From: a virus
Taxonomy: Duplodnaviria; Heunggongvirae; Uroviricota; Caudoviricetes
Virus record (IMG/VR): IMGVR_UViG_2925891887_000002
Strand: one strand, 5' to 3'
Length of the DNA stretch: 58,711 nt
Part shown: in pieces, positions 19,329-49,605 of the stretch
How positions within the stretch are numbered: the first letter of the stretch is position 1
How the letters are laid out: each line of letters starts with the position of its first letter
Program-made: the position numbers and the translations under genes
Notes under the pieces: model-generated
The model's database searches: none
What the model saw: the letters and a program-made list of their open reading frames with translations, nothing else
Told to the model about the DNA's origin: nothing

Positions 19329-20252
19329 TCGCCCTCCTGAGAGACGGGATTTACGTGCATCCAGTGCATCACGCATGACGGTGATCGCATCGGTACTGTT
19401 CACAAGTTCATCAGCCAGTCCGGCATCAATGGCCTCCTGACCGCTGTACACTGCAGCCTCGGTATCCAGCACAGCCTGCACGGACAGGCCGGTATATGCC
19501 GACACCTTCTGTGCAAACATCCGGCGGGTTGCATCCATCCGGGACTGCAGTGTTTCCCGGACATCATCCGGTAGATGGCTGTAGGGGTTGCCATCCACCT
19601 TATGGCTGCCGCTGTAAATCAGCGTGATTTCCACGCCCTGTTTCTCCAGCGCAGCACCGTAATTACTGTGAGCCATCATGACGCCGATGGAGCCTGTCCG
19701 GGCGGTCTGCGTGACCAGACGCCGGGAGGCGGCGCTGGCAAGCAGCTGACCTGCACTGCAGTTCATGTCGTTGGCCAGCGCCCATACCGGTTTTATGTCT
19801 CGCACACGGGCGATGATGTCAGCACAGTCAAATGCTCCCGCCACCATCCCGCCCGGTGTGTCCATATCCAGCAGAATGCCGTCCACAATCGGATCGCTGG
19901 CAGCCTGTTGCAGACGGGCGATAATGCCGTTGTAACCGGTCATCCCCGAATACGGCTGCAGCGCCCGCGTCCGGCTGACCAGCGTGCCGGACACCGGCAG
20001 CACGGCGATGCCGTTCATGACCTGATAACTGCGGGCCTGTCGTGGTCCGTCATCATCAACGGATAACGCCAGCGCCGCGGGTGCCTCTCCGGCAGTCAGG
20101 CTGTCGCCGGACACCGCATCCGCCAGGCGGCTGATCCCAAGCTGGCCTGCAAGCGCACAAAAGAAAACCCGCGCATAGGCGGGTTCAAGCATCAGCGGCT
20201 CATTAAAGGCCATACTGGCAATATGCGGGAGATTACGCAGCTCTGCTGTCAC
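18933..20252 (-). CDS. C: Capsid assembly protease C
   Basis: 439 aa from GTG (VTAELRNLPHIASMAF), lambda C match. Confidence 0.9.
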   Translation of the reverse strand: MTAELRNLPHIASMAFNEPLMLEPAYARVFFCALAGQLGISRLADAVSGDSLTAGEAPAALALSVDDDGPRQARSYQVMNGIAVLPVSGTLVSRTRALQPYSGMTGYNGIIARLQQAASDPIVDGILLDMDTPGGMVAGAFDCADIIARVRDIKPVWALANDMNCSAGQLLASAASRRLVTQTARTGSIGVMMAHSNYGAALEKQGVEITLIYSGSHKVDGNPYSHLPDDVRETLQSRMDATRRMFAQKVSAYTGLSVQAVLDTEAAVYSGQEAIDAGLADELVNSTDAITVMRDALDARKSRLSGGRMTKETQSTTVSATASQADVTGVVQATEGENASAAQPDVNAQITAAVAAENSRIMGILNCEEAHGREEQACVLAETPGMTVETARRILAAAPQSAQARSDTALDRLMQGAPAPLAAGNPASDAVNDLLNTPV

Positions 20253-21012
20253 TCTTCTCCTCCTCTGTTGATTGTCGCAGCCCGGATTCAAATGCTGCAG
20301 CCGCCCAGGCGGGCGGTTTAAGACCGGCTGCACGGCGCTCCATCGTTTCACGGACCTGCTGGGCAAAAATTTCCTGATAGTCGTCACCGCGTTTTGCGCA
20401 CTCTTTCTCGTAGGTACTCAGTCCGGCTTCTATCAGCATCACCGCTTCCTGAACTTCTTTCAGACCATCGATGGCCATACGACCGGAGCCTATCCAGTCG
20501 CAGTTCCCCCAGGCACTGCGGGCTTCCTGAAAACTGAAGCGCGCTTTTGAAGGTAACGTCACCACGCGGCGAACGATGGCCTCTTCCAGCCAGCACAGAA
20601 ACATCTGGCTCGCCTGACGGGATGCGACGAATTTTCGCCGCCCCATAAAGTACGCCCACGACTCGTTCGCACTGGCCCGTGCCGTGGAGTAGCTCATCTG
20701 GGCGTAATTCCGGGAAAGCTGCTCATACGAGACACCCAGCCCGGCAGCAATATACCGCAACAGTGACTGCTCAAACACGGAGTAGCCGTTATCCGTGTCC
20801 TGAGCCGTCTGCAGGTTCAGTGAGTCCCCCGGCATCAGGTGCGGCACTTTTGCGCCTCCCAGCCGGACCGGTGCTGCGGCGTAATACGCGGCAATTTCAC
20901 CAATCCAGCCAGTCAGCCTTTCCCGCTGCTCCTGACTGTTCGCGCCCAGAATAAAATCCATCGCTGACTGCGTATCCAGCTCACTCTCAATGGTGGCGGC
21001 ATACATCGCCTT
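20233..21012 (-). pseudogene. B: Portal protein B, C-terminal fragment
   Basis: MYAATIESELDTQSAMDF...EEEKSDSRAA matches the lambda B C-terminal half; homology stops at the satellite junction. Confidence 0.9.
21001..21012. other. Satellite att core copy, left junction (ATACATCGCCTT)
   Basis: Direct repeat of 31400..31411 with one mismatch. Confidence 0.65.
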
Positions 21013-21086
21013 TATGAAAAGACAGGAAAAAATAAAATTTAAAAACAGTACATTACGAATGCTCAGACCTATCGTTTAAAGGAGTC

Positions 21087-21107
21087 GCAATACACACTGC
21101 AATACAC
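21087..21107 (+). repeat. Two GCAATACAC direct repeats, putative integrase arm-type sites (left end)
   Basis: Same 9-mer occurs three times at the int-proximal end. Confidence 0.5.
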
Positions 21108-21194
21108 GATTATTTATAAGATGAGCGGCATCCGTCATAAAGCTGGTGGATGCTTTTTCTATGCATATATGCACAGTTTTAGTGGGCGTTAATG

Positions 21195-21218
21195 TCGATA
21201 TAGGGATCCCCATATCGA
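21195..21218. repeat. Nested palindrome TCGATATAGGGATCCCCATATCGA
   Basis: 7-bp inverted arms flanking a GGATCC core. Confidence 0.4.
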
Positions 21219-21450
21219 GATTGGATACCTGGCTTTTTTCCGGTTAACCTTTAATCAGGCTGGTGGGCTTTACCTGTTTTGTATGAGTGGTCATCATGAC
21301 CATGTCATAACAAAAACCCCATATTCGTGGTTTTTCTGTGTCGGGCTATTCTGTCGTTGCTGTGCTGATTTGGCTGGTGGGCTGAATCATCATTACGGCG
21401 ATGCAGCTATGTAGACGTTCCGGCCTCCTCAAATTGAGGATTGTGGAAGA

Positions 21451-21810
21451 ATCAATGGGTTAGTCTTACTTTCCCGACATCCCCCAATGGGGGTTTTCGA
21501 AACAATCAATAGCTTAGGCTTACTTCCCCGATTTCCTGCATTGCAGGTTTTCGAAATAATCAATGGGTTAGGCCATCGTGCAATTTTGCACTTTGCCAGC
21601 CAGCGCAATGTCGCGTTATCAGTCCTCAGATGTGAGGGATGTAGCCAGCTTTTCCCCCAGTGGGGGATATCCAGCACCGACGGCTTAACTGTGCGTGCCA
21701 GCACAAGGTAGCCTTGAACTACTTACTGCATCCCATCTTACAGGCCGTGCCTTCCTGCTTAACTTTTTGCAATGCAACAAGTCAGCCAGCGCAATTTTGC
21801 GTTATCGGGA
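21451..21810. repeat. Array of 54-bp tandem repeat units and 12 to 14-bp GC-rich palindromes, several followed by T-runs
   Basis: Units at 21451, 21505, 21559; palindromes at 21481, 21535, 21578, 21654, 21790. Confidence 0.7.
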
Positions 21811-21821
21811 ATATCAGCAAG

Positions 21822-22103
21822 TTACCGCCGCAATCGTTCCGGCTTCTTCCACTGGTAAGTATTTTTCGCGCTCTCCCTCCGTTGTTGAGAACGGCGACGA
21901 TATGCCAGCAACTCAAGGACTCTTGTTCGTATGTTGCGCATATCCACGCCGTTAAGCTCAATACCGTCACGGCGCATCACCTCAGCCACTACACGCACAT
22001 AATTATCTGCGGTCACGCTGTCCGGCTGCGTGGCCTGTTCGTCATGCTGCTTGCTGATTCCACAAGCACGGCGGATTAATCGCAGTATTTCGGATTCAGT
22101 CAT
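21822..22103 (-). CDS. Hypothetical protein (satellite)
   Basis: 93-aa ORF just downstream of the terS-like gene, same strand. Confidence 0.4.
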   Translation of the reverse strand: MTESEILRLIRRACGISKQHDEQATQPDSVTADNYVRVVAEVMRRDGIELNGVDMRNIRTRVLELLAYRRRSQQRRESAKNTYQWKKPERLRR

Positions 22104-22114
22104 AGCGTACTACG

Positions 22115-22642
22115 TTACTTATCTTTATTCGGCTGCAACTTATCCGGTACGTTTCCGGCAGTTTCCATCAGATAATCGGACAGCATCAGCGGTATGTTTT
22201 CGTCAAGTTTTGCGCATGCGTTACGGGCTCTGATAACTTCTTTTTTCAGTCCATCCAGCATAGACGGCTTCATGTCGGGAAACTTCCTTGTCATGGCAAG
22301 CGGCAGGCTGTCCATGATTGAAGAAATCTGACTCGCTAGTTTTGAAATCGCGTAGATGCAAAACTTTGTATCAATCACCTCGCCGCGTTCGCGCTCGTTT
22401 TTAAGTTCCTGCGCTTCCGCCTGGGCCGTCATTAATCTGATTCTTACGCGTAAAAGTTCATCATCATCAATCTCGCCTTTGTCGTCTGTAATCTGGTTAA
22501 TTGCATTGCTAACCCGATTGTCTATTACGCTGGCAACATCATAAAACGCCTCGCGGCCTTTACGTTCAACGGGAGTCACTCCCCACTTGTCGAACGCTGT
22601 CGCACTTACACGGCAGCTTTGCGCCATGTTTTTTTTGTTCAT
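22115..22642 (-). CDS. Small terminase (Nu1)-like protein, candidate packaging-redirection factor
   Basis: C-terminal two thirds align with Nu1 at 34333..34878 (RLxxAQAxAQELKN..); N-terminus divergent; start chosen at MNKKNMAQ. Confidence 0.7.
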   Translation of the reverse strand: MNKKNMAQSCRVSATAFDKWGVTPVERKGREAFYDVASVIDNRVSNAINQITDDKGEIDDDELLRVRIRLMTAQAEAQELKNERERGEVIDTKFCIYAISKLASQISSIMDSLPLAMTRKFPDMKPSMLDGLKKEVIRARNACAKLDENIPLMLSDYLMETAGNVPDKLQPNKDK

Positions 22643-22790
22643 CAGGTGCGATTTCATCAATATCCCCACTTAAGTAATGTTTCAGGTTGGTGTATTGGCT
22701 TTATCTTTTCCTTTTTATTCATAGAGATAGAGCGAACAACAAAACCACCACCAGCACCCGAAAAAGGCTCATAAATAGCGAAAACCCGCG

Positions 22791-22802
22791 AGGTCGCCGC
22801 CC
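22791..22802. other. Satellite cosN (12-nt cohesive-end sequence)
   Basis: AGGTCGCCGCCC with lambda-like flanks on the cosQ side, divergent on the cosB side. Confidence 0.8.
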
Positions 22803-22858
22803 CGTAGCCTACCGGATCGCCGGAAAGGACCCGCCAGCCAGAACGGGCCCTAATTTCA

Positions 22859-23263
22859 TCAACCAATCAACTTATAGCGACCATCCCGTGCATTGCGACG
22901 TACACGCTCAATCTTGAGGCATAGCGCCGCATCTGGCTTTTTTGGGACAGGTACGCGGCAATATTCAGAAGATCGAGGAATATTGTTTATCCAGTCGATC
23001 ACTTCACTTAAATACCAGGCCTTACGCCCTTCCGTAACCTGTACGCGTTCGGGGAACTCTCCGCGAGCCTCAAGGTTTAGCAATGTGCGACGGCTAAGGG
23101 TAGTAAGTTCCATCACCTGATTCATATCAACAAGGCGTTCACTTAAACGCATTTTGTCAGCAATAGCCTTTAATTCCTCTACTGCTGGATCCGGATACAT
23201 CATTTCGGCAATTGGCTTAAGGTCATTGTAATGATTCTGCATTGTATCCCCCTTTACACACAA
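22859..23263 (-). CDS. AlpA-like HTH protein with N-terminal extension
   Basis: 134-aa ORF; C-terminal half has an AlpA/excisionase-like motif. Confidence 0.5.
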   Translation of the reverse strand: MCVKGDTMQNHYNDLKPIAEMMYPDPAVEELKAIADKMRLSERLVDMNQVMELTTLSRRTLLNLEARGEFPERVQVTEGRKAWYLSEVIDWINNIPRSSEYCRVPVPKKPDAALCLKIERVRRNARDGRYKLIG

Positions 23264-23595
23264 GCCAGCGGCTGAACAGAAATACCTGAGCCAACAAACG
23301 CGGCAACCTTTGCCGACAGTTCTTTTACAGACTCAGGCCAGTTCAGAGCATCAACATTTAAAACACCTGTCTTATAAACCTGTGCCTGTGTTTTTTTCGC
23401 TGTGTCGATTTGTACAGCGGAAACATAAACCGCTTTACCTACGCTCGAACCATCCCATACCACCAGTGCACCTGTTGCATCTTCCTGCATCAGTGGCGTA
23501 AATGCAGGAATTACCCCTTTATTAGCTGAAAATATCCCCAGCGTAGTCACCAGTGCTTCAGTGCCAGCCATGAGTTCAGTGTAATGAGTAGCCAT
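23254..23595 (-). CDS. Head decoration protein D homologue (satellite)
   Basis: 113 aa; conserved blocks shared with D at 18591..18923 (TPLM..WDG, K(S/T)G..WPE). Confidence 0.7.
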   Translation of the reverse strand: MATHYTELMAGTEALVTTLGIFSANKGVIPAFTPLMQEDATGALVVWDGSSVGKAVYVSAVQIDTAKKTQAQVYKTGVLNVDALNWPESVKELSAKVAAFVGSGISVQPLACV

Positions 23596-23604
23596 TGCTC
23601 CCCC

Positions 23605-24651
23605 TTAGCCAATGCGAACGGTAACAAAACGATTGATGCGGGCCGGTATTGGCTGTGGTGCTGAATGTGTCTGCACATATTCAATAGCCGGATCACCAGG
23701 CACAATATAGTTTTTCGGTGCAAGTTCGGCTTTAGTCAGCCCCATTCGGATTAGCTCCGGATCCTGAATACCGCCATAGGCGACAATCCCCTGAAGAGCC
23801 GTATTGCCAAGCACCATCAAATCAGGATCAAGGAAATGTTTTTCTGTTCCGTCCTCGTCGGTATAACGCCCGCTGTAAACAACAATCGCAACATCGCCCA
23901 TATACCCTTTAAAACTCACCGAATCACCAAGGTCTTTAAGGGCCGTTTCCAGTTCGGAATTAGAACCACGACGGGTATCCAAAGCCTCTTTTATCGCTCT
24001 GAATGAACGGTATTTCTTCCATACATTACCACCCATAATGATGATATTAGTGACGCCCTCACTAAATTCTGCGTAGCTCTCAATATCATCATTTGGATCA
24101 AAAGTTTCTTTATCCTTACCTGACCACTCAGTACCGCCAGACTGAGTGATGATATTTTGTGGTTTTATATTCCAGTCCAGCTCATAACGTTCAATACCAT
24201 CGCCCTCAATGATATTTTTCCCCGTTGTGATTGCCTGAACAGCAAGCCATTCAATACGTGCACGAATAGCTTTAGCCTGATTTACAATCGCCTGTTTAAC
24301 TTTAATATTACGCGCCCCAAAAGCATTGTATTGCTCAGGTGACACACCAGCAGGGCGCACAGCTAACTTATTTGGATCAATGCTGCTTTTCGGCTTCATA
24401 TAACCTGGACGAATTGTTTTTGATTCGTATCCCTCATCTCGTGAAACTTTACTGCCCACCATAGGAGAGCAAAACGCCGCGATCGGGATATTTGGATCGT
24501 CGATCGTATCAAGAATAATGTCTCTCGATTCAAACATTACCGAGCGAGTGAAAAACAAACTGGTAAACAACGCATTTAATTTTTTTTGCACATCTTCAGC
24601 ATTAGCCACCTGCACAAGCTGTGTAGGCGAATATAAATCAACCATACGCAT
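23605..24651 (-). CDS. Major capsid protein E homologue (satellite)
   Basis: Aligns with E along its length (ITQSGGTEWS, DPxDDIE, LDTRRGSNSELETA, AIVVYSG); start chosen at MRMVDLY; ORF extends upstream to 24819. Confidence 0.75.
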   Translation of the reverse strand: MRMVDLYSPTQLVQVANAEDVQKKLNALFTSLFFTRSVMFESRDIILDTIDDPNIPIAAFCSPMVGSKVSRDEGYESKTIRPGYMKPKSSIDPNKLAVRPAGVSPEQYNAFGARNIKVKQAIVNQAKAIRARIEWLAVQAITTGKNIIEGDGIERYELDWNIKPQNIITQSGGTEWSGKDKETFDPNDDIESYAEFSEGVTNIIIMGGNVWKKYRSFRAIKEALDTRRGSNSELETALKDLGDSVSFKGYMGDVAIVVYSGRYTDEDGTEKHFLDPDLMVLGNTALQGIVAYGGIQDPELIRMGLTKAELAPKNYIVPGDPAIEYVQTHSAPQPIPARINRFVTVRIG

Positions 24652-24862
24652 CCTCTTTGCATTCATTAAAAATAATTGTGGATATATGCTATCACCGATA
24701 TTTGTCATGCGAATACATGCAACCGAGTGCAATGTTGTATAAAGTTTTGGGATAACAACTTCAGCGCGGATAATTAGTGTTAATATCTTCACTCCCTTTG
24801 GTCGGGATTTATGTAGCATGCCGGAAAATTTATTTTTTTCCGGCCTTTTTTATTGGCAATAT

Positions 24863-25312
24863 TTAAAACGGAATATCATCTCCCCATTGCTCATTTTCTC
24901 CCACTGGTGGATGGCTTCCTTGCTGATCTGCCTGTTGTTTTGCTCTGTTCAGTGCGTCAGTAGCCTGACCCTGTTGACCTTTTTTGCCGCCCGGTCGCAC
25001 CGTTCGCGCACTGATTACGCTGTCTGCGATAACCTGCCAGCCCTGCCGCGTTTCACCGTTCTGGCCTGTCCACTGTCTTACCTGCATGTTACCCGCCACG
25101 CTCACCAGTTCGCCTTTGTGGTGTTTTGCCAGTGCGTCGGCCTGTCTGCCAAACGCCAGGACGGATAACCACATCGTCGCCGTTCCGTCATCTGCCTGGC
25201 TGCACGGAAGGGGGACCGCCATACTAGCCATCGTCATTTGTGTACCCTTGCTGGTGGTCTTTAACTGCGGGTCAGCCACCAGCCGCCCGTAAGCCGCTAT
25301 CTGTGCTGTCAT
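24863..25312 (-). CDS. ssb: Single-stranded DNA-binding protein
   Basis: 149 aa, OB-fold-like, ends with the SSB acidic tip DDIPF. Confidence 0.7.
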   Translation of the reverse strand: MTAQIAAYGRLVADPQLKTTSKGTQMTMASMAVPLPCSQADDGTATMWLSVLAFGRQADALAKHHKGELVSVAGNMQVRQWTGQNGETRQGWQVIADSVISARTVRPGGKKGQQGQATDALNRAKQQADQQGSHPPVGENEQWGDDIPF

Positions 25313-25560
25313 GCTGTCTGCTCTCCAGTTTTAACGTTGATGGTTGTCACCTGTTCCGCTTCGGCAATCTCCCGTTCTGTCAGCGTGGCAAAGTTTGCCG
25401 CCGTCGTGGTCATGAATGCGCTTATCAGTTCGGGGTGTGCTTTCGCGTATCCTTCCCCAGCGTGGCGGTCTATCGTTCTGATTGCCACCTTTAAGGCGTG
25501 CTCTGTCATGTCTAACGCTTTATATTTTGGCGCTGTCTTATCTCTGGTTTTTCTGGTCAT
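25309..25560 (-). CDS. Hypothetical protein (satellite)
   Basis: 83-aa ORF between ori and ssb. Confidence 0.4.
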   Translation of the reverse strand: MTRKTRDKTAPKYKALDMTEHALKVAIRTIDRHAGEGYAKAHPELISAFMTTTAANFATLTEREIAEAEQVTTINVKTGEQTA

Positions 25561-25765
25561 TCCTCACTGCTCCCCACTTTTACTACCCACTTTTTGAAAT
25601 TACCCAACGTCTCCCCACTTCTTTTTTTTGTGATTCTAACGTGATGTTTTTCAATGTGTTTTTTATTCCCCACTTTTTGGGGTATATACAGGTGGGAAAG
25701 TGGGGAATCACGTTTCAATTTTGTTAAATTCCCCACACTCCCCACTTTTACTACCCACTTTTTAC
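25561..25765. repeat. Putative satellite replication origin with CCCCACT iterons
   Basis: At least eight CCCCACT(T) motifs in both orientations plus AT-rich stretches, directly 3' of the rep gene. Confidence 0.6.
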
Positions 25766-27177
25766 AGTGGGCGCACGTCATCACCGTCAATAGCAATAAC
25801 GCCATCACCTTCCAGCTTGTACAGCCAGCGCCGGAAGTGTTTCATCTCATACCCCAGCTTTTTCATATCATCGCGCAACAACGGAATAGTGCATTTATCT
25901 CCGCGCTGTGTGCGTGAACGGATACAGCCCCATAGCGCGGCATGATTCTCCGTCTTGTTCCCGGCTTCCTCGATGCGCTCCAGTTCAACGGGTGGGCGCG
26001 GCTTATCCACAACAACCAGCGACGTGATTAACTCCCCGTCAGTGTCGGTAAAAAGCTCCACCACACGTAAATCGTATGCGGCCTCTTTCAGTTCCTCCGC
26101 GTCCTTCATTTTTGTGCAGGAGATAACCAGGGCTTCACTGTCTGCACCTTCACGGCGAATACGGTATTCAGCGTCCAGAGATGCACGAAATGCACTGGAA
26201 CCACGCGCCCCCTTTGTTTCATCCTTGCCGGAATGGTGAACCACCAGCACCGTGGCCCCTGTGCGGCGTTTCAGTTCGTCACATCCACGGATAAACGCCC
26301 CCATATCCCGCGCGTCATTTTCATCATTACCGCCAAAGCAACGCGCCAGCGTATCAAGAATAATCATGCGTACCGGTTTACCCGTTTCCCGTTCAACCTG
26401 GCGGGAAGCGATGACCATTTCATCAACATCAAGCGGGACTGCCGGAAAAATCGGGCGGTTTACCAGGTACAGATTTTCCACCCGTTCATCATTAACGATT
26501 TCCCATGCCTTGATACGGCGGGGGACACCAATGCCACCTTCACCGACAACATACATCACCGAACCATGCGCCACCCTGCGGCCTCCCCAGTGACGGCCAG
26601 TGGCAACATGACACGCCCAGGAACACGCGAGGAACGATTTATAGGAACCGCTCGCGCCGTATGTGCTGCACAATGAATTAGCCGGAATCACGCCCTTAAC
26701 GACATAATCAAGCTGTGTGTCGTACCCTGCAGATCCAATGCTCATTGGTAGCGTGGTTTTTCGCTGGCTGTATTGCTCGTCAGTAAGTATTTCCCCGCGC
26801 TCTGCCTGTTCGCGGATCCGTTGCAGGTAGTCGTGCCAGTTCTCCAGCTTCTGGCTGTGCATTCCATCAGGGTAATAATTCGCATCCCGTACACCTGCCG
26901 CCGCCAGCTTTTGCCCGATAGCATTAATATTTGACGGCTTGATGTGGCCTGCCTTGTACAGCCGGACACAATAGCGACCATCGTCGATAATTTTCAGGTC
27001 TGCCAGTTCGTCAAGCTGGCTGTCTCCCAGCCATACAGGCGGGACGTTATCACCAGCAAGTCGCCCGTCCTGTTCCTGCCACTGTTTCGCGTGCGCCCAG
27101 GCATCACTACCCGCAAAAATAATGACTTCGGTCATTTTGTCGTGTGGCTGTTTTTTTAAGTTCGGTGCCAGTTTCAT
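25762..27177 (-). CDS. Replication initiator ATPase (RepA/AAA_25-like helicase with primase-like N-terminus)
   Basis: 471 aa; Walker A GASGSYKS; ILDTLARCF and LVVHHSGK motifs. Confidence 0.7.
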   Translation of the reverse strand: MKLAPNLKKQPHDKMTEVIIFAGSDAWAHAKQWQEQDGRLAGDNVPPVWLGDSQLDELADLKIIDDGRYCVRLYKAGHIKPSNINAIGQKLAAAGVRDANYYPDGMHSQKLENWHDYLQRIREQAERGEILTDEQYSQRKTTLPMSIGSAGYDTQLDYVVKGVIPANSLCSTYGASGSYKSFLACSWACHVATGRHWGGRRVAHGSVMYVVGEGGIGVPRRIKAWEIVNDERVENLYLVNRPIFPAVPLDVDEMVIASRQVERETGKPVRMIILDTLARCFGGNDENDARDMGAFIRGCDELKRRTGATVLVVHHSGKDETKGARGSSAFRASLDAEYRIRREGADSEALVISCTKMKDAEELKEAAYDLRVVELFTDTDGELITSLVVVDKPRPPVELERIEEAGNKTENHAALWGCIRSRTQRGDKCTIPLLRDDMKKLGYEMKHFRRWLYKLEGDGVIAIDGDDVRPL

Positions 27178-27473
27178 TTTTTGCCCCTGAATGCGTTAAT
27201 CATGTTTTTCATTTTCTGAATATTTGCCCGTGCCTTTGCGTTGCTGGTGGGCTGTTTGCGTGGTGTGGCCTGTATCAGTGAAAAATCACGCCGGAACTGA
27301 TAAGCAGGCATCACGCAGTCATAGCCGTACCCATCACGGCGGTAAGTAACGCACCGCCCCGCCACGCTTTTAATCGTTACCGTGCCACCGTAGTTATCCC
27401 GGAAAATATCGCCGGGGCGGATTTCAGGCCGAGGGAGACCACTGGCAGTAAAGCCAGAATTTTTCTGTTTCAT
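27174..27473 (-). CDS. Hypothetical protein
   Basis: 99-aa ORF. Confidence 0.4.
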   Translation of the reverse strand: MKQKNSGFTASGLPRPEIRPGDIFRDNYGGTVTIKSVAGRCVTYRRDGYGYDCVMPAYQFRRDFSLIQATPRKQPTSNAKARANIQKMKNMINAFRGKK

Positions 27474-27479
27474 GTTTTT

Positions 27480-27698
27480 TTACTCCAGAGGCAGATTTTT
27501 AGCGGCGAGTTCAATATCAGATGTCAGAGAAACCTGTGTATTTGCCAGGTCTAACAACAAAGAAATAAGAATTTCCTCTCTGCTATCGGATTCATCGGTG
27601 CTAAGGCTGTTCATCCACATATTGACGACTTCCCTGATTTTTTTCGCAGAGTGCAGGGCTTCAAATGCCAGGTCTTCAATATCATGTTTATTTCGCAT
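27480..27698 (-). CDS. Hypothetical small protein
   Basis: ORF from internal Met MRNKHDIEDL. Confidence 0.3.
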   Translation of the reverse strand: MRNKHDIEDLAFEALHSAKKIREVVNMWMNSLSTDESDSREEILISLLLDLANTQVSLTSDIELAAKNLPLE

Positions 27699-27900
27699 AA
27701 TCGCCCCCGCGTAACTGGTCTGCACTAACACCCGATTTAGTGAGCATTTCAGAAAATCCCGCAAGAGTGCTGATAAATTCGTTTTCCATTAAACGGCACT
27801 GGCATTTAACCCGGCCTTTTTCCAGATACACCAGTACGCGCCACGTATAATCTGACGGCACATTCAGCACTACAGATAAGTGCGCTTCATTATTATTCAT
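27688..27900 (-). CDS. Hypothetical small protein
   Basis: 70-aa ORF. Confidence 0.35.
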   Translation of the reverse strand: MNNNEAHLSVVLNVPSDYTWRVLVYLEKGRVKCQCRLMENEFISTLAGFSEMLTKSGVSADQLRGGDYAK

Positions 27901-28129
27901 GGCTCACCACCTCCATATCAGCCATGATAATTTTGCTGGCCTCATTCAGTGCCATATCAGCACTAAGTTGCATTACAGCCAGTGAATGAGGAACGAAAGC
28001 CCCGGCATATTCTGTTTCACTGGTAGCGTGCTTATGCGCCCTGTCCGCGATAACAGAAATATCAATCAGCGCATCAATCAGTGTTTTGATTGCTTCGGCG
28101 GCTGCGTCCGGACGGGTGTTATTGCACAT
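27893..28129 (-). CDS. Hypothetical small protein
   Basis: 78-aa ORF. Confidence 0.35.
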   Translation of the reverse strand: MCNNTRPDAAAEAIKTLIDALIDISVIADRAHKHATSETEYAGAFVPHSLAVMQLSADMALNEASKIIMADMEVVSHE

Positions 28130-28325
28130 GGTGCACCCCCTGACGAATACGGGCGGCGAATACCATCACGCAGCCAGCCGGTGATTGCTGACGGGCTTCC
28201 TGTTCGCTGGTGGCCTCAATGGTAATCACGCGCGGTTGTGCCGTACTCAGGGCGATAAAACGCCAGATGTATTTATTCAGGTTGTGCGAGCCCCGCCCTT
28301 GCGGGTGTGTGGTATGATTTCTCAT
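28119..28325 (-). CDS. Hypothetical small protein, first gene of the leftward satellite operon
   Basis: 68-aa tail of a longer spurious ORF, starting at ATG 28323..28325 next to the operator region. Confidence 0.35.
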   Translation of the reverse strand: MRNHTTHPQGRGSHNLNKYIWRFIALSTAQPRVITIEATSEQEARQQSPAGCVMVFAARIRQGVHHVQ

Positions 28326-28422
28326 AGCTACCTCGATACTGTTGCTATCGTTGGTGGTTAGAAGCCCGGTTAGTGTTAGCGCACTGCCGGGTTTCGTCGT
28401 TTCTGCACCTTGCACCAACAAG

Positions 28423-28474
28423 GTGTTGAACACCAATTTAAACCCAGGTGTTGAACACGTCAAGTGTTGAACAC
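28423..28474. promoter_or_regulatory. Three direct repeats of GTGTTGAACAC in a divergent promoter region (putative operators)
   Basis: Repeats at 28423, 28448 and 28464 between divergent small genes. Confidence 0.55.
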
Positions 28475-28524
28475 TTGTTTTTTTTCCTGCATACTGCATT
28501 TGTTTTTTGTGAGGGGTACACAAC

Positions 28525-28704
28525 ATGGCGACAAAAGCAGTAAACGCAAAATCACAAACAGTTGCGGCAAGGGTTCCGCATGAAGTTATGAACAATGTTG
28601 AGGCGGTAAAAATGCCTGGTGAAAGTACAGGGCAGTTTGTAACAGCAGCATTAAAGCGAGAAGTTGAATACCGCCAGCGACGCAAGGCTAAAGAGCAAGA
28701 ATAA
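28525..28704 (+). CDS. Small putative DNA-binding regulator
   Basis: 59-aa ORF (not in the track) with GAGGGG Shine-Dalgarno 8 nt upstream. Confidence 0.45.
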   Translation: MATKAVNAKSQTVAARVPHEVMNNVEAVKMPGESTGQFVTAALKREVEYRQRRKAKEQE

Positions 28705-28761
28705 TCACTATCAGCGCTGTGGTGTGAGGTACTCCGGCGCATTGCTTTACAGGTCGGCACT

Positions 28762-28971
28762 ATGAGCAAAAAATACCTATCCACTGAAGAGATTTTCGCA
28801 GAACAACGAAGATTGCTTTTACAGAGCATTGTTGCACGCCAGAAAGAAAAGGCACACGCTAAACAAATGCCACCAAATACAGAACCAGCGCCTACAAAAT
28901 TTGCGCTTGATGAGTTTCTCAATAAACAGCCCCGGGTAATGAAAGCTAACAGGAACCGCCCACCAGGCTGA
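28762..28971 (+). CDS. Hypothetical small protein
   Basis: 69-aa ORF downstream of the regulator. Confidence 0.4.
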   Translation: MSKKYLSTEEIFAEQRRLLLQSIVARQKEKAHAKQMPPNTEPAPTKFALDEFLNKQPRVMKANRNRPPG

Positions 28972-29067
28972 TCACATTGCCCACCAGCCGCAAATGTGGC
29001 ATTGTTGGTGATGCTTTTGTTTTCCCTTGTTCCCACTGGCGACCCTTTTGCGGTCGCCTTTGTTTTG

Positions 29068-29646
29068 TCACTGAATGCGGTTACCAAAGTAAAACTCAGG
29101 CTGATATTCACGTATCAGCGTTTTTTCTTCTTCCTCCAGCTCACGCTTTTTGCGCTTACATGCCTGTAGCTCCCTCCCCTTCTCGCTGGCACTTATTTGA
29201 TATTGCTCTTTACGGCGGGAAAAATCCTGTAATGCACCCCACGGGATACCATAAGCCCCCGTTTTTCTGATACCCGGTATCACATTTCTGAATACCCAGT
29301 TACTGAAACGATGAGCAAATGTGCCAGGCGTCGTTGCTTTGCGGCTGCGGGCTATTAGTTTGTAGAAACCTGACTCAGAGATAATTCTCATATTCTGATT
29401 TCCTCCTGGGGTGTAAGTTAAATTTACTCCCTTTTCATCATCATCAAGCATCTGCAACGCCGTACGCGAATTGGTTAGTTCCAGCACAGCACAAACATCT
29501 TTTGCAACAAACCACGGATCGCCGTTCAGATACACCACACGAACGTTCACACTATCAAAGCGCAGAACGACGAGATCACGAATATCGCAGAATTTTTTCA
29601 CTGGACGAGCGTACCCCTTGCCCGTCACGGCAATATTTTTATTCAT
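29068..29646 (-). CDS. Bro-N domain protein (antirepressor-like)
   Basis: 192 aa; N-terminal motif VRVVYLNGDPWFVAKDV typical of Bro-N. Confidence 0.65.
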   Translation of the reverse strand: MNKNIAVTGKGYARPVKKFCDIRDLVVLRFDSVNVRVVYLNGDPWFVAKDVCAVLELTNSRTALQMLDDDEKGVNLTYTPGGNQNMRIISESGFYKLIARSRKATTPGTFAHRFSNWVFRNVIPGIRKTGAYGIPWGALQDFSRRKEQYQISASEKGRELQACKRKKRELEEEEKTLIREYQPEFYFGNRIQ

Positions 29647-29663
29647 CGCGTTTTTACCTTATA

Positions 29664-29690
29664 GACAAAAAACCCCTCGTGATGAGGGGC
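29664..29690 (-). terminator. Rho-independent terminator downstream of alpA
   Basis: CCCCTC..GAGGGG hairpin followed by a T-run on the minus strand. Confidence 0.55.
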
Positions 29691-29702
29691 ATTATTTACT
29701 GG

Positions 29703-29960
29703 TTATTGCTGTTTTGTTTTTCCAGGTTTCCATCCAGGATGCCACTCACCACGGATCCATGCCTGAACCTCTGAAAGTCGATACCCTGCAGCACGTTCAC
29801 CGATCTTGATACGTCGCGGGAATTTACCTGCCTGCTCCATTTTCCAGCGTGTTGAGTTTGCCAGCGTGGTAAGTGCTATGCACTCTTTTTCACGAATGAA
29901 CCGATCAATGTCCTTCATTGTGCGCAAATCGTTTTCATCAACAAGAGAATAAATTGCCAT
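29703..29960 (-). CDS. alpA: AlpA-family regulator / excisionase
   Basis: 85 aa, AlpA motif, directly downstream of int. Confidence 0.75.
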   Translation of the reverse strand: MAIYSLVDENDLRTMKDIDRFIREKECIALTTLANSTRWKMEQAGKFPRRIKIGERAAGYRLSEVQAWIRGEWHPGWKPGKTKQQ

Positions 29961-29961
29961 A

Positions 29962-31203
29962 TCACACCACCTCTTTATTAAGCTCGATAACGTTGTTGTT
30001 AAATCCTGCTATCGTATTAAGGTAATTAACCCATATATTAAGCACCTCAAGTTTTTTCTTTATATGCCTGCTTTTATTGTAAACACCAGCAACCCCTTTC
30101 ACTTTATGACCTAAAAGAAGTTCGACAATATAAGGATCCGCCCCCATATCATTAAGCGTAGTGGAAAATGTGCGCCTGAAATCATGTATGCACCACAAGC
30201 CATTAGTATCATGACCAAGACGCCTGCATATTCTGTTTGCAGCCCCTGTTATTGTCGCCCTTTGCAAAGCACAACCGACAACATAACCGCGATTTTTTGT
30301 TTCTGCGTAAAGATTAACGATCCATTGTTTTATTCCGTCAGGAACAGGCCTTACTATAGCCTCCTTGTTTTTGCTGTGCTCTTTTGGGACTGTCCATACC
30401 CAGTTTTTTAAATCCCATTCGTCCCAGGTGGATAGCCTCGCCTCCTGCTGTCGGCAACCAAACACCAGGCAGATAACCATTATTCTTCGGTTATATATTG
30501 ATGACAGAGTTAGCAAATTATTACCGTAAGCATAAGACCATACATCAGCGGTTTCATTGATATTAAGAACGCGATCCCTTATACCGGATGAGCGCCCGAC
30601 ATAACTTACGTTAATATCTCCAAAGGGATCGCACGCGATGTATTGCCTGACGCGACAAAAACGCAACGCCTGTTTGATATCAAGAAAAATTGCACCAGAC
30701 ATAACAGGCGCATTTTTTTTGATCCTGTCAAAGACGGTAAGCCATGTGTGTAATTTGCACTGTTCTATAGCCATATCACCGATATAGGGGAAGATATGCT
30801 TTTCAAATCGTTTTATTAAATATTCATGCTCTTTTCTGGCTGTTGTGGCGTGATTGTCGTACCAGTAAAACAGCGCATCCCTTACGGTCACTGGTTGCAT
30901 AGTTTTTTCGGCAGCAAGTTTTATTTGCCTGCGGGGGTCCAGATTTTCAGCCAGCCATTCACGGCACTGATCACGCATGCGCCTGGCCGTTGCAAGAGAC
31001 ATGTCAGGATAGCGACCAAGTGTAAGCCATACCGGAGGGGATTCCCTGCCACCAAGACGATAGTAAAAAACAAAGCTGATCCCCCCAACCATGCTTACAC
31101 GCACAGACAACCCGCGCCCATCCGCTATTGTTTTTTGTTTGTCCTGCCGTTTTCCGACAAGACTCTTTAACAGTTTGTCACTGAGTTTGTTTTCAATAGC
31201 CAT
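29962..31203 (-). CDS. int: Tyrosine integrase (P4/PICI-type)
   Basis: 413 aa; C-terminal HDFRRTF and LLGH..Y catalytic motifs. Confidence 0.85.
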   Translation of the reverse strand: MAIENKLSDKLLKSLVGKRQDKQKTIADGRGLSVRVSMVGGISFVFYYRLGGRESPPVWLTLGRYPDMSLATARRMRDQCREWLAENLDPRRQIKLAAEKTMQPVTVRDALFYWYDNHATTARKEHEYLIKRFEKHIFPYIGDMAIEQCKLHTWLTVFDRIKKNAPVMSGAIFLDIKQALRFCRVRQYIACDPFGDINVSYVGRSSGIRDRVLNINETADVWSYAYGNNLLTLSSIYNRRIMVICLVFGCRQQEARLSTWDEWDLKNWVWTVPKEHSKNKEAIVRPVPDGIKQWIVNLYAETKNRGYVVGCALQRATITGAANRICRRLGHDTNGLWCIHDFRRTFSTTLNDMGADPYIVELLLGHKVKGVAGVYNKSRHIKKKLEVLNIWVNYLNTIAGFNNNVIELNKEVV

Positions 31204-31223
31204 TAAAAGCCCTCAAGAGATTT

Positions 31224-31274
31224 GCAATACACACCCATCCCGATCGCCAATTTGCAATACACATTGCAATACAC
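31224..31274 (+). repeat. Three GCAATACAC direct repeats, putative integrase arm-type sites (int-proximal)
   Basis: Copies at 31224, 31254 and 31266. Confidence 0.5.
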
Positions 31275-31399
31275 AAAACCGCGAAAAACTGGAAGGGTGA
31301 TGAACGGTCATCAAAAGCATGGAAAACGACATTCCAGACGCAGCAAGGGTTTCAGTGGAGTTGGCGAACGATGCGGGCAACTACGGTGAGATGATAGAC

Positions 31400-34332
<2,933 letters not shown>

Positions 34333-38561: not shown

Positions 38562-39149
38562 TTACATCATGTCTTTTTCTAAAAAAAATCTTGATGAATA
38601 TTGATGGGGAGGAACACCAAAATACCTTCTGAAAACACTTACAAAATATGACGTGTTTTCATAACCGCATATCTCAGCAACTTTTCCAACAGAATATAAA
38701 TTGTAGCTTAATAATCTTTCCGCCATCACCATTCGCTCTTCAAGAATTAACTTACTAAATGATAAGCCTTCGTGCTTTAATTTTCTTTTTAACAGACTTT
38801 CACTCAGATACAGTCTTGAAGATATATCACAAAGTCTCCATGCTGCAGATATATCCGTGTGAATAATAGCCTTAACTTTACTTCCTAAACTATTAAGACA
38901 TCCAAATAAAAAACTTTGCACTATTTTCTCTGAAGATAAGATAGCAAGACATGCAAGTGATATTTGATTTCTAACAAAATCCACAGTTCTGCCATCACAA
39001 TTCAAGCATGCAATCAAGTTCTTTAACAATGAAAAATCTTCACATTCCACCATCAAGTATGCCGGATAAAACCTTCTTACAGAAAAAGGTGAGAGTGTGT
39101 TGCTTTTAAAGAAATCATTAACTGTTTTTTCTTCAACATCTACGATCAT
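38562..39149 (-). CDS. AraC-family transcriptional regulator
   Basis: 195 aa; C-terminal AraC-type HTH; AT-rich context. Confidence 0.7.
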   Translation of the reverse strand: MIVDVEEKTVNDFFKSNTLSPFSVRRFYPAYLMVECEDFSLLKNLIACLNCDGRTVDFVRNQISLACLAILSSEKIVQSFLFGCLNSLGSKVKAIIHTDISAAWRLCDISSRLYLSESLLKRKLKHEGLSFSKLILEERMVMAERLLSYNLYSVGKVAEICGYENTSYFVSVFRRYFGVPPHQYSSRFFLEKDMM

Positions 39150-39643
39150 TACATGATCTATATTTGATGAAAAAAATCTTTTAAATTGTAATCAATGAGA
39201 ACAGCATTTCCTTTTTTAAACAAAATATCTTCTTTACCAATTCGGACATCAAACGAATTCAACACCAAAATGATAGAACATATGTATGGCATATTATCCA
39301 CCTGATATCATTGGGGTTACACCAGGTAAGTATAGGTGGAAAATCAATATTCGCCAGTTCAACAATAAGGAAAATTTCATTACATCACAAGTATAAAATT
39401 ATGTATTTAACTCACAAAGACAAATTATTAAACCAATCTGTTATATTATATATAGCTGCGTGGAATCATAATATTATATATTTTGACTGGCATGTTTACC
39501 AACTTTAAGTTGCATCTCAATTGTTTCTTCAGCGTAAACAGAGTTTTTATACAAACTGACACTCTGGGTATCATAGTGTAGTTTTTACGATTGTAAATAT
39601 CCTGCATGCAGGAACTCATCCTTTTGGATGATATCGCATACAA

Positions 39644-40603
39644 TTAATTTACCATCAGTCTTAGAGCCAGTTCGTCCGGATAGGGATCGAAGTAATTCTG
39701 TGTAAGCAAGTAATCATTAGGATACTCACCCAGATAATGCTTCAGCAGAGTCAACGGCGCAAGAAGAGGTAATGTGCCAGAACGATAGTTAAGTATAACC
39801 TCGCTCAACTCTTTACGCTGGCGTGTACTTAAGTAGTTACTAAAATACCCCTGTATATGCATCAGCACATTCGTGTGATTTTTACGTGATGCAGGTTTTC
39901 TGAGAATCGCCATCAGCTTATCACGATACACCTCAAAGTATGATTCAAGGTCCGCCCACTCGTGTATTGCAGCCACAAATGGTCCCATATCTTTATAGCC
40001 TGCCTGACTATGCGCCAACAACTGAAGCTTATAACGACTATGAAAAGCTAATAACTCTCTTCTTGATAATTTCTCCTTGTAAAGGTGATTGAGCTCATGC
40101 AAAGCAAAAACTCTTTCAACAAAATTCTCACGAAGCACTGGATCATGTAATCGCCCATCCTCTTCAACCGGTAGCCAGGAAAACTTTTCCATCAAAGTGC
40201 TCGTAAATAGTCCCACTCCATCTTTACGACCTCGATTACCATTTTCATCATAGACACGCACGCGCTCCATGCCACAGCTGGGAGATTTAGCACAAACCAC
40301 AAACCCCGATACATCCTTTAATTTGTCCATATAAGAACGACTAAACTCTGTCATTCTCTCTGTCACATCCTCATTCTGGTCGTGGCTGAAACACATCCGT
40401 ATATTTCCTTGCATCGAGCGCACAAGACGTAGAGCAGGACGCGGAACTGGCAGCCCTATAGCCATTTCCGGACATACTGGTCTGAATGTTACCCATTCCA
40501 CTAATTTGTCCATTAAAAAGTCAGCTCTTTTGTGACCACCATCAAAACGAACAGCAGAACCGGCCAAACAACCGCTGATTCCAATCACAGGTTTTTTTAT
40601 CAT
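39644..40603 (-). CDS. DUF523/DUF1722 fusion protein (YbgA/TudS-like)
   Basis: 319 aa; Cys-containing N-terminal domain. Confidence 0.6.
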   Translation of the reverse strand: MIKKPVIGISGCLAGSAVRFDGGHKRADFLMDKLVEWVTFRPVCPEMAIGLPVPRPALRLVRSMQGNIRMCFSHDQNEDVTERMTEFSRSYMDKLKDVSGFVVCAKSPSCGMERVRVYDENGNRGRKDGVGLFTSTLMEKFSWLPVEEDGRLHDPVLRENFVERVFALHELNHLYKEKLSRRELLAFHSRYKLQLLAHSQAGYKDMGPFVAAIHEWADLESYFEVYRDKLMAILRKPASRKNHTNVLMHIQGYFSNYLSTRQRKELSEVILNYRSGTLPLLAPLTLLKHYLGEYPNDYLLTQNYFDPYPDELALRLMVN

Positions 40604-48466: not shown

Positions 48467-48742
48467 GTGGCTTCTGTTTCTATCAGCTGTCCCTCCTGTT
48501 CAGCTACTGACGGGGTGGTGCGTAACGGCAAAAGCACCGCCGGACATCAGCGCTATCTCTGCTCTCACTGCCGTAAAACATGGCAACTGCAGTTCACTTA
48601 CACCGCTTCTCAACCCGGTACGCACCAGAAAATCATTGATATGGCCATGAATGGCGTTGGATGCCGGGCAACTGCCCGCATTATGGGCGTTGGCCTCAAC
48701 ACGATTTTACGTCACTTAAAAAACTCAGGCCGCAGTCGGTAA
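48467..48742 (+). CDS. insA: IS1 InsA
   Basis: 91 aa, InsA match. Confidence 0.9.
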
Positions 48743-49164
48743 CCTCGCGCATACAGCCGGGCAGTGACGTCATCGTCTGCGCGGAAATGGACGAACAGTG
48801 GGGCTATGTCGGGGCTAAATCGCGCCAGCGCTGGCTGTTTTACGCGTATGACAGGCTCCGGAAGACGGTTGTTGCGCACGTATTCGGTGAACGCACTATG
48901 GCGACGCTGGGGCGTCTTATGAGCCTGCTGTCACCCTTTGACGTGGTGATATGGATGACGGATGGCTGGCCGCTGTATGAATCCCGCCTGAAGGGAAAGC
49001 TGCACGTAATCAGCAAGCGATATACGCAGCGAATTGAGCGGCATAACCTGAATCTGAGGCAGCACCTGGCACGGCTGGGACGGAAGTCGCTGTCGTTCTC
49101 AAAATCGGTGGAGCTGCATGACAAAGTCATCGGGCATTATCTGAACATAAAACACTATCAATAA
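48661..49164 (+). CDS. insB: IS1 InsB frame (expressed as InsAB' by -1 frameshift)
   Basis: InsB match; A6C slippery motif TTAAAAAACTC at about 48716. Confidence 0.85.
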
Positions 49165-49448: not shown

Positions 49449-49605
49449 GCCTCACGATCGCCCCACCTAAAAACACATAACCAATTGTATTTATTGGAAA
49501 ATAAATAGATACAACTCACTAAACAACGCAATTCTGATCTCTCCTTACATCGCCGAGGCAATACACTCACTCGAAAAAATAAATCCATATAAAAAACATA
49601 CAGAT

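Follow-up and report, generated by a model that had tools for sequence, protein, structure and literature searches.

HE-PICIs (helper-embedded phage-inducible chromosomal islands) are satellites found in the late genes of lambdoid helper prophages, and 14 of their sites, in 9 genes, were described by Tommasini, Mageeney & Williams (2023, NAR Genomics and Bioinformatics, PMC10111431). The E. coli elements of the site group B:Phage_portal_2:241 are about 11 kb long and have the identity block 'aaggcgat' (PMC10111431, supplementary tables). The motif tgTGTATTGCantgTGTATTGCa (tgTGTATTGCa) was found doubled, twice per HE-PICI attP, at 81 ± 2 bp upstream and 132 ± 2 bp downstream of the centre (PMC10111431). 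It was stated to be absent from other PICIs and unique to HE-PICIs; the repeats of P4 were unmentioned (PMC10111431). The binder of the motif was left open with AlpA named as the alternative, and the capsid-gene element 11capE is the only one for which experiments demonstrated precise excision (PMC10111431). In the later literature we found no report naming the protein that binds the motif.

Related attachment sites are known from other integrative elements. In the P4 record (NC_001609), an 'attP arm sequence repeat' TTGGGGGCATAA is annotated as tandem doublets with a period of 12 bp, located at -86/-74 and +122/+134 from the core centre. The integrase of KplE1 (CPS-53) represses its own gene from upstream sites (Panis et al. 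2010, PMC2951348), and for P4 Int the same paper, citing Piazzolla 2006, reports autoregulation through direct binding to DNA close to the promoter.

The stretch of DNA analysed here (the window, 58,711 nucleotides of IMG/VR record IMGVR_UViG_2925891887_000002) holds an island of 10,399 bp (10.4 kb, counted between equivalent overlap positions) that splits the portal gene of a lambda-like prophage. Gene calls were taken from the RefSeq annotation of NZ_CP195467 (E. coli 22AR0322), whose sequence is identical to the window. The helper is a complete lambda-like prophage adjoining ybhC, at lambda attB, and its split portal gene is placed between gpW/terminase and the S49 protease. The main features are as follows.

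21012..31410, minus strand, HE-PICI satellite island (RefSeq annotation, Pfam matches and a rebuilt empty site matching intact portal genes)
20233..21006, minus strand, C-terminal portal fragment (Phage_portal_2 profile positions 238-354), whose ORF start happens to be the Met277 codon
31352..32233, minus strand, N-terminal portal fragment (Phage_portal_2 profile positions 2-242), continuing into the island to a stop after ...KAIYVYHLTVVARIVRQLH
21000..21012, unstranded, left core copy CATACATCGCCTT, the int-distal junction and attR in int orientation (matches the published B_Phage_portal_2_241 attR strings)
31399..31411, unstranded, right core copy CATAAATCGCCTT, the int-proximal junction and attL in int orientation (identical to the attL of Eco10269.11.B_Phage_portal_2_241)
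29962..31203, minus strand, tyrosine integrase of 413 aa with an N-terminal arm-type DNA-binding domain (Pfam PF13356, E = 3e-17; PF22022; PF00589)
29703..29960, minus strand, AlpA-family helix-turn-helix protein of 85 aa, directly downstream of int (Pfam PF05930, E = 5e-14)

The portal gene is split at Pfam profile positions 238-242. Fusing the flanks in silico gave a portal ORF of 533 aa, and the rebuilt empty site (251 bp) was 100% identical to intact portal genes of many E. coli genomes. The portal site is the true insertion point. The junction strings of the window are the published attL and attR of Eco10269.11.B_Phage_portal_2_241, and the assignment of the element to its group rests on these strings together with the position of the split. 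The island further shows the features of an HE-PICI, namely a late-gene location in a lambda-like prophage, a catalogued site, the doubled motif, the PICI zone order and co-orientation, the island and its key genes being on the same minus strand as the helper late genes. With the published B:Phage_portal_2:241 elements it has in common the target codon, the identity block, the junction strings and the motif distances, as well as the order of int, AlpA, Bro-N, replication zone and late zone and the late-operon orientation. It differs from them in carrying a RepA-family helicase module, where the others usually have a primase.

The full gene order of the island is int, AlpA, Bro-N, Icd-like, DUF4222, RepA helicase, SSB, capsid E, decoration D, HTH and Nu1-like TerS, with Pfam matches for int, AlpA, Bro-N, the AAA_25 RepA helicase, SSB, Phage_cap_E, HDPD and the Nu1-like TerS. 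The capsid E and decoration D homologues are of the lambda type, and the HTH protein before TerS is a second AlpA-like protein. The RepA-family helicase (AAA_25) module occupies 25762-27177, where nearly all relatives have a P4-type primase. Coverage of at least 80% of the island was found in only 1 of 5,426 complete E. coli genomes, which points to a swap of the replication module. No known RNA was detected by an Rfam search of the island.

Finding the attachment sites and the motif from raw sequence amounts to a rediscovery of published features, real but ordinary, as the element family, the portal site, the crossover block and the repeat motif were already published in 2023. Modest additions to that paper are a fifth repeat restricted to one subclade, an integrase whose arm domain is its best conserved part, and a doublet layout common to P4 and the hpt cf-PICI. 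The value of the locus is that of a clean worked example, in which the portal gene of the helper is not expressible until the satellite excises.

The nine-base word GCAATACAC begins at positions 21087, 21099, 31224, 31254 and 31266, always on the plus strand, and forms three groups.

21087..21107, plus strand, P-arm doublet of GCAATACAC (21087-21095 and 21099-21107, period 12 bp), 79-99 bp from the overlap centre
31254..31274, plus strand, P'-arm doublet of GCAATACAC (31254-31262 and 31266-31274, period 12 bp), 133-153 bp from the overlap centre
31224..31232, plus strand, fifth, single copy of GCAATACAC, beginning 28 nt upstream of the int ATG and about 176-183 bp from the overlap centre

The counts given in the preliminary description, two copies near the left end and three from int to the right core, were confirmed. 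The window as a whole contains 7 matches to the word against 0.57 expected, and 0 of 100 dinucleotide shuffles reached 7. The two other matches are isolated copies in the helper, one at 39962-39970 (minus strand) inside a YbgA-family gene and one at 49558-49566 (plus strand) between IS1 and N. They were rejected as parts of the system and attributed to chance, being single, in unrelated helper regions and set against an expectation of 0.57. Including its flanks, the repeat unit reads T(T)GCAATACACA. A literature text search for GCAATACAC gave unrelated primer matches only. Measured on the doubled TGTATTGC motif, the near edge of the distal doublet is 79 bp from the overlap centre and that of the proximal doublet 133.5 bp. 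The HE-PICI paper describes four half-sites, whereas the subclade of the window has the fifth single copy beside int.

The repeats are the conserved part of the arms. The P-arm doublet was kept in every relative whose distal end was covered, and the P'-arm doublet was invariant in six aligned relatives. When the six int-proximal arms were aligned, 26-27 of the 27 columns of the three repeats were conserved, against an identity outside the repeats of 53% at 76% integrase identity and of 43% in Erwinia at 70% integrase identity. An integrase search of genome contigs returned a single locus, from Erwinia endophytica, which is too thin for statistics. The fifth copy was present in all B:241 relatives examined, with one mismatch in Erwinia (integrase 70% identical). 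It was missing in capE:80, in B:227, at the ClpP-protease site and in the Arsenophonus element, and the doublet there is 23-35 nt from the ATG. The distance from the overlap centre to the proximal doublet is 133.5 across the B:241 clade and 133-135 in capE:80 and B:227, whereas the proximal doublet and the int ATG are 23 to 85 nt apart, depending on the site group. The position of the repeats is therefore tied to the crossover and not to the gene start.

Most likely, the two junctions are the attL/attR pair of a B:Phage_portal_2:241 HE-PICI, with a P4-family integrase that would cross over in a 7-bp overlap and with the TGTATTGC repeats as its putative arm-type sites. The attachment-site part of this reading was also made in the preliminary description and is borne out by the junction strings and the empty site; its further claim that the repeats are integrase arm sites is plausible, and the support for it is comparative. 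Two features of a heterobivalent site of the lambda/P4 type are present, namely a separate arm-binding domain and repeats on both arms that are distinct from the core. The Arm-DNA-bind_3 match (PF13356) covers integrase residues 7-94 as a separate N-terminal domain, with the central and catalytic domains behind it. In comparisons with four other site groups, the identity is 64-70% for residues 1-95 and 41-53% for the core-binding and catalytic parts. Such conservation of the arm domain above the rest is expected if this domain recognises a motif common to the groups and the other parts adapt to new targets. The integrase N-terminal domain as the binder of the putative arm sites is the leading published hypothesis, and from these comparisons we infer that it is plausible.

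The other candidate binder is the AlpA-family protein, itself a candidate excisionase. On this account an excisionase or transcription factor of that family, rather than the integrase arm domain, would bind the TGTATTGC repeats. AlpA was named as the alternative in PMC10111431, its gene adjoins int downstream, and tandem direct repeats spaced by about a helical turn are common binding sites of excisionases, according to a statement in PMC7498355. Between site groups, AlpA has 57-65% identity, with hardly any change in its helix-turn-helix core among the groups that share the motif. Since integrase and AlpA are both conserved across site groups, conservation cannot separate them as binder. The layout speaks against AlpA, as co-oriented doublets on both arms are what is annotated as attP arm repeats in P4. 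Excisionase sites are usually confined to one arm, as in lambda and KplE1, which also counts against AlpA as the binder. In the Arsenophonus element the motif is unchanged, yet the AlpA-like protein is only 43% identical as compared with 68% for the integrase N-terminal domain. The presence of doublets on both arms and the Arsenophonus element weakly favour the integrase, and binding by AlpA appears unlikely.

Between the proximal doublet and the core, the palindrome TGATGAACGGTCATCA was observed at 31298-31313, and it is partly conserved in an alignment of B:241 arms. An accessory protein, for instance AlpA or a host factor that bends DNA, may bind there.

The repeats could also be taken as transcriptional operators of the int promoter only, having no architectural role in recombination. 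The int-proximal GCAATACAC copies do lie ahead of int, 28-70 nt from its ATG, and integrase is regulated from such positions in KplE1 and P4. However, the two copies of the distal doublet are at the opposite end of the island from int, and no gene follows them; the spacing from the crossover is constant, whereas that from the int ATG ranges over 23 to 85 nt across groups; and no consensus promoter was detected in the region. An operator role alone is thus very improbable. A regulatory role in addition to the architectural one is a different matter, and by analogy with IntS of KplE1 and Int of P4 the fifth copy may serve int autoregulation. Autoregulation through the repeats is a conjecture, because a promoter scan from the core to int revealed no consensus sigma-70 site. 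It was suggested in PMC10111431 that int is perhaps transcribed by read-through from the helper late operon.

The two core copies follow the pattern CATA[C/A]ATCGCCTT. They are identical at 12 of 13 positions and differ only at 21004 (C) versus 31403 (A). Read in int orientation, the core is A1 A2 G3 G4 C5 G6 A7 T8 [T/G]9 T10 A11 T12 G13. Exact identity is confined to a block of 8 bp, ATCGCCTT, or AAGGCGAT on the int strand. The 13-bp core was rejected as the functional unit, and an 8-bp identity block with a 7-bp overlap was preferred, located as follows.

21004..21004, unstranded, mismatch base C of Met277 (ATG) of the portal, attB-derived and the first base past the predicted overlap (116/116 uninterrupted sites and E. 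coli empty sites)
21005..21011, unstranded, predicted 7-bp overlap ATCGCCT (int strand AGGCGAT), left copy (identity blocks of diverged lineages)
31404-31410, unstranded, predicted 7-bp overlap, right copy (identity blocks of diverged lineages)

The left core is translated as K-A-M-Y-A in the C-terminal portal fragment and the right core as K-A-I-Y-V in the read-through of the N-terminal fragment, followed by a stop inside the island. The single difference (C on the left, A on the right) and its effect on the portal codon, from Met to Ile, are both as given in the preliminary description, which had also proposed a comparison with empty B sites in related prophages. The junction comparison covered the window and about 28 other loci, with at least five portal alleles and integrases 70 to 100% identical. 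The int-proximal junction was invariably T9 in the window, L002, L003, 24 IMG/VR loci and three further E. coli genomes, and the int-distal junction in the same set was invariably G9 wherever it was covered by the DNA compared. An IMG/VR scan of the portal site gave 120 matches; 116 of these were uninterrupted genes, all with G9 (116/116, the Met codon), and the remaining 4 were distal junctions, likewise G9. The E. coli empty sites agree. From the junction pattern and the uninterrupted sites, G9 is the attB base and T9 the attP base, so that the A at 31403 is attP-derived. The base at position 9 invariably goes with the arm C-terminal to the crossover. Rather than a polymorphism, the C/A mismatch represents a fixed difference between attB and attP.

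The extent of the overlap was predicted from elements in other portal alleles. Only GCGCCAT is common to both junctions of the elements in CGC-GCC-ATG alleles, and only GGGCGAT to those of the Serratia element, in which the identity stops earlier on the mismatch side. In AAA-GCC-ATG alleles the common block is AAAGCCAT, with AAGCCAT as its overlap part. The variant identity blocks coincide exactly with core positions 2-8 (7 bp), and the differences are on either side. The rebuilt attP, CATAA-AGGCGAT-TTATG, has a perfect 5-bp inverted repeat around the predicted 7-bp overlap, and the portal side reads TGTGA-AGGCGAT-GTATG. With the overlap at positions 2-8, the mismatch is the innermost base of the right-hand core-type half-site. 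The 4 bp past the mismatch (TATG) match because the half-site is TTATG in the element and GTATG in the portal; by sequence this is a similarity of putative core-type half-sites, and not an identity of the crossover. The exact boundaries of the overlap and the core half-sites are those we infer from these comparisons.

Some occupied sites deviate from this pattern. In L117/L020 (IMGVR_UViG_2617271340_000010), the int-proximal core is AAGGCGAT-T and the int-distal core is AAAGCCAT-G, and the uninterrupted form of this portal allele is invariably AAGGCGAT. Eco10735 and Eco1978 likewise have AAGGCGAT versus AAAGCCAT, with two differences inside the proposed overlap (PMC10111431). The differences between AAGGCGAT and AAAGCCAT are at synonymous third-codon positions. 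Sites of the L117/L020 type arose either by insertion with two heterologies in the overlap or by a later exchange of the flank through homologous recombination. Together with Eco10735 and Eco1978 they indicate that strict identity of the overlap is not always met, or that flanks were exchanged later.

Since the mismatch lies outside the predicted overlap, all uninterrupted sites have Met and the junction bases are fixed, excision is predicted to restore Met277 every time. The preliminary description had expected the restored B sequence to depend on the crossover point, and this expectation is not supported. The opposite arrangement, with the C/A mismatch inside the strand-exchange region and excision giving mixed Met/Ile portal alleles, could draw on the 4 bp of identity (TATG) past the mismatch and on the existence of insertions with heterologous overlaps, but it is scarcely credible, as a heteroduplex in the overlap would segregate both ways and yet all occupied sites are arranged alike, over at least five portal alleles and integrases 70 to 100% identical, with the Ile base in 0 of the 116 uninterrupted sites and the identity of the Serratia-type element ending earlier on the mismatch side.

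An excised attP junction was sought in IMG/VR, JGI metagenomes and complete E. coli genomes, and none was found. The rebuilt attP (299 bp) had no match of at least 80% in the 5,426 complete E. coli genomes, and the arms were present in 67 of them. Up to four arm matches were found per genome, which suggests two satellite copies in some strains.

In the preferred reading, the P4-family tyrosine integrase of the satellite would exchange strands within AGGCGAT (int strand), flanked in attP by the half-sites CATAA and TTATG. The five co-oriented TGTATTGC repeats (about -98 and -86; about +134, +146 and +176) would be bound by the integrase N-terminal domain and would link the arms with the core in an intasome of the same architecture as in phage P4. 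A second role of the int-proximal copies is probably the repression of int. Each junction would keep the base of its own arm, and excision would yield an intact 533-aa portal with Met277 and an attP with the other base. The predicted products are an attB of ...ATTGTGAAGGCGATGTATGCCGCC (Met) and an attP of ...CTTTTCATAAAGGCGATTTATGTCTATC. The sequence evidence thus predicts an exact restoration of the wild-type Met codon.

This layout was compared with those of P4, the hpt cf-PICI and KplE1. P4 shares with the island an integrase family with Arm-DNA-bind_3, doublets on two arms co-oriented with int, and a fifth copy near the int start. In P4 (L166, 3915-4174) the fifth repeat copy is inverted and lies on the int start codon. 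The P4 repeat is TTGGGGGCATAA as compared with TGTGTATTGCAA in the island, its doublets are about 22 bp closer together, and its fifth copy differs in being inverted. The target of P4 is a tRNA-Leu gene and not a phage gene. None of the P4 hallmarks (sid, psu, delta, epsilon, alpha primase) was among the annotated products of the island, and the likeness to P4 is limited to the integrase type and the attP layout.

The hpt cf-PICI, a capsid-forming PICI of E. coli GDSC2239PM (NZ_CP136018, L165), has GGTGTATCACTC doublets on both arms, also with a period of 12 bp. Its inter-doublet spacing is 233 bp versus 232 bp in the island of the window, its integrase is 46% identical to that of the island, and it has a single mismatch inside its core block as well. 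Its DUF4222-primase-SSB module is that of most relatives of the island, for example L002 (WP_000161636.1 is identical). It differs in its repeat GGTGTATCACTC, in its site at the start of the chromosomal hpt gene instead of a helper gene, and in its full HK97-type head and terminase module. In KplE1 (CPS-53; IntS/TorI), int likewise abuts the attachment site and arm-type and core-type sites lie upstream of int, but this element is a prophage at the argW tRNA gene.

The doublets of P4 and the hpt cf-PICI indicate that the layout is common across the integrase family and that only the repeat sequence changes. We tentatively suggest, with the balance leaning somewhat against it, that the doublet-plus-single layout could be an ancestral scaffold of P4-type intasomes in P4, hpt cf-PICIs and HE-PICIs, whose repeats (GGGGGCA, TGTATCAC and TGTATTGC, respectively) would have diversified with the integrase N-terminal domain. 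If so, each lineage would have a private arm code that keeps co-resident satellites from cross-reacting, and the core-binding part would be free to evolve towards new late-gene targets. The fifth copy of the portal-241 elements would then be the functional counterpart of the fifth repeat of P4, controlling int expression. The fifth half-site, the conservation of the arm domain and the layout of P4 and the hpt cf-PICI sharpen the question of which protein reads TGTATTGC.

Several further observations were made on the island and its helper. At the int-distal end of the island, about 800 bp (21013-21822) are unannotated. Past the arm doublet, this end contains a hairpin at 21127-21154 and a palindrome at 21191-21222. 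Three tandem copies of a 54-nt unit are located at 21420-21581, and a short G+C hairpin is present in each. Similar hairpins of the CCTCAAAATTGAGG type occur at the distal end of the hpt cf-PICI (L165). The unannotated stretch 21013-21822 may be a packaging (cos) or replication site.

The helper prophage carries an IS1A copy at 48467-49164, between the immunity-region genes and gene N, and a frameshifted HTH gene near 38562-39292. With these two lesions it may be defective beyond its split portal gene. HE-PICIs of the B:241 group were observed in at least three different lambdoid prophage backgrounds (L029, which is E. coli strain 48, L030 and L031), and the L031 background carries IS600 in its large terminase gene.
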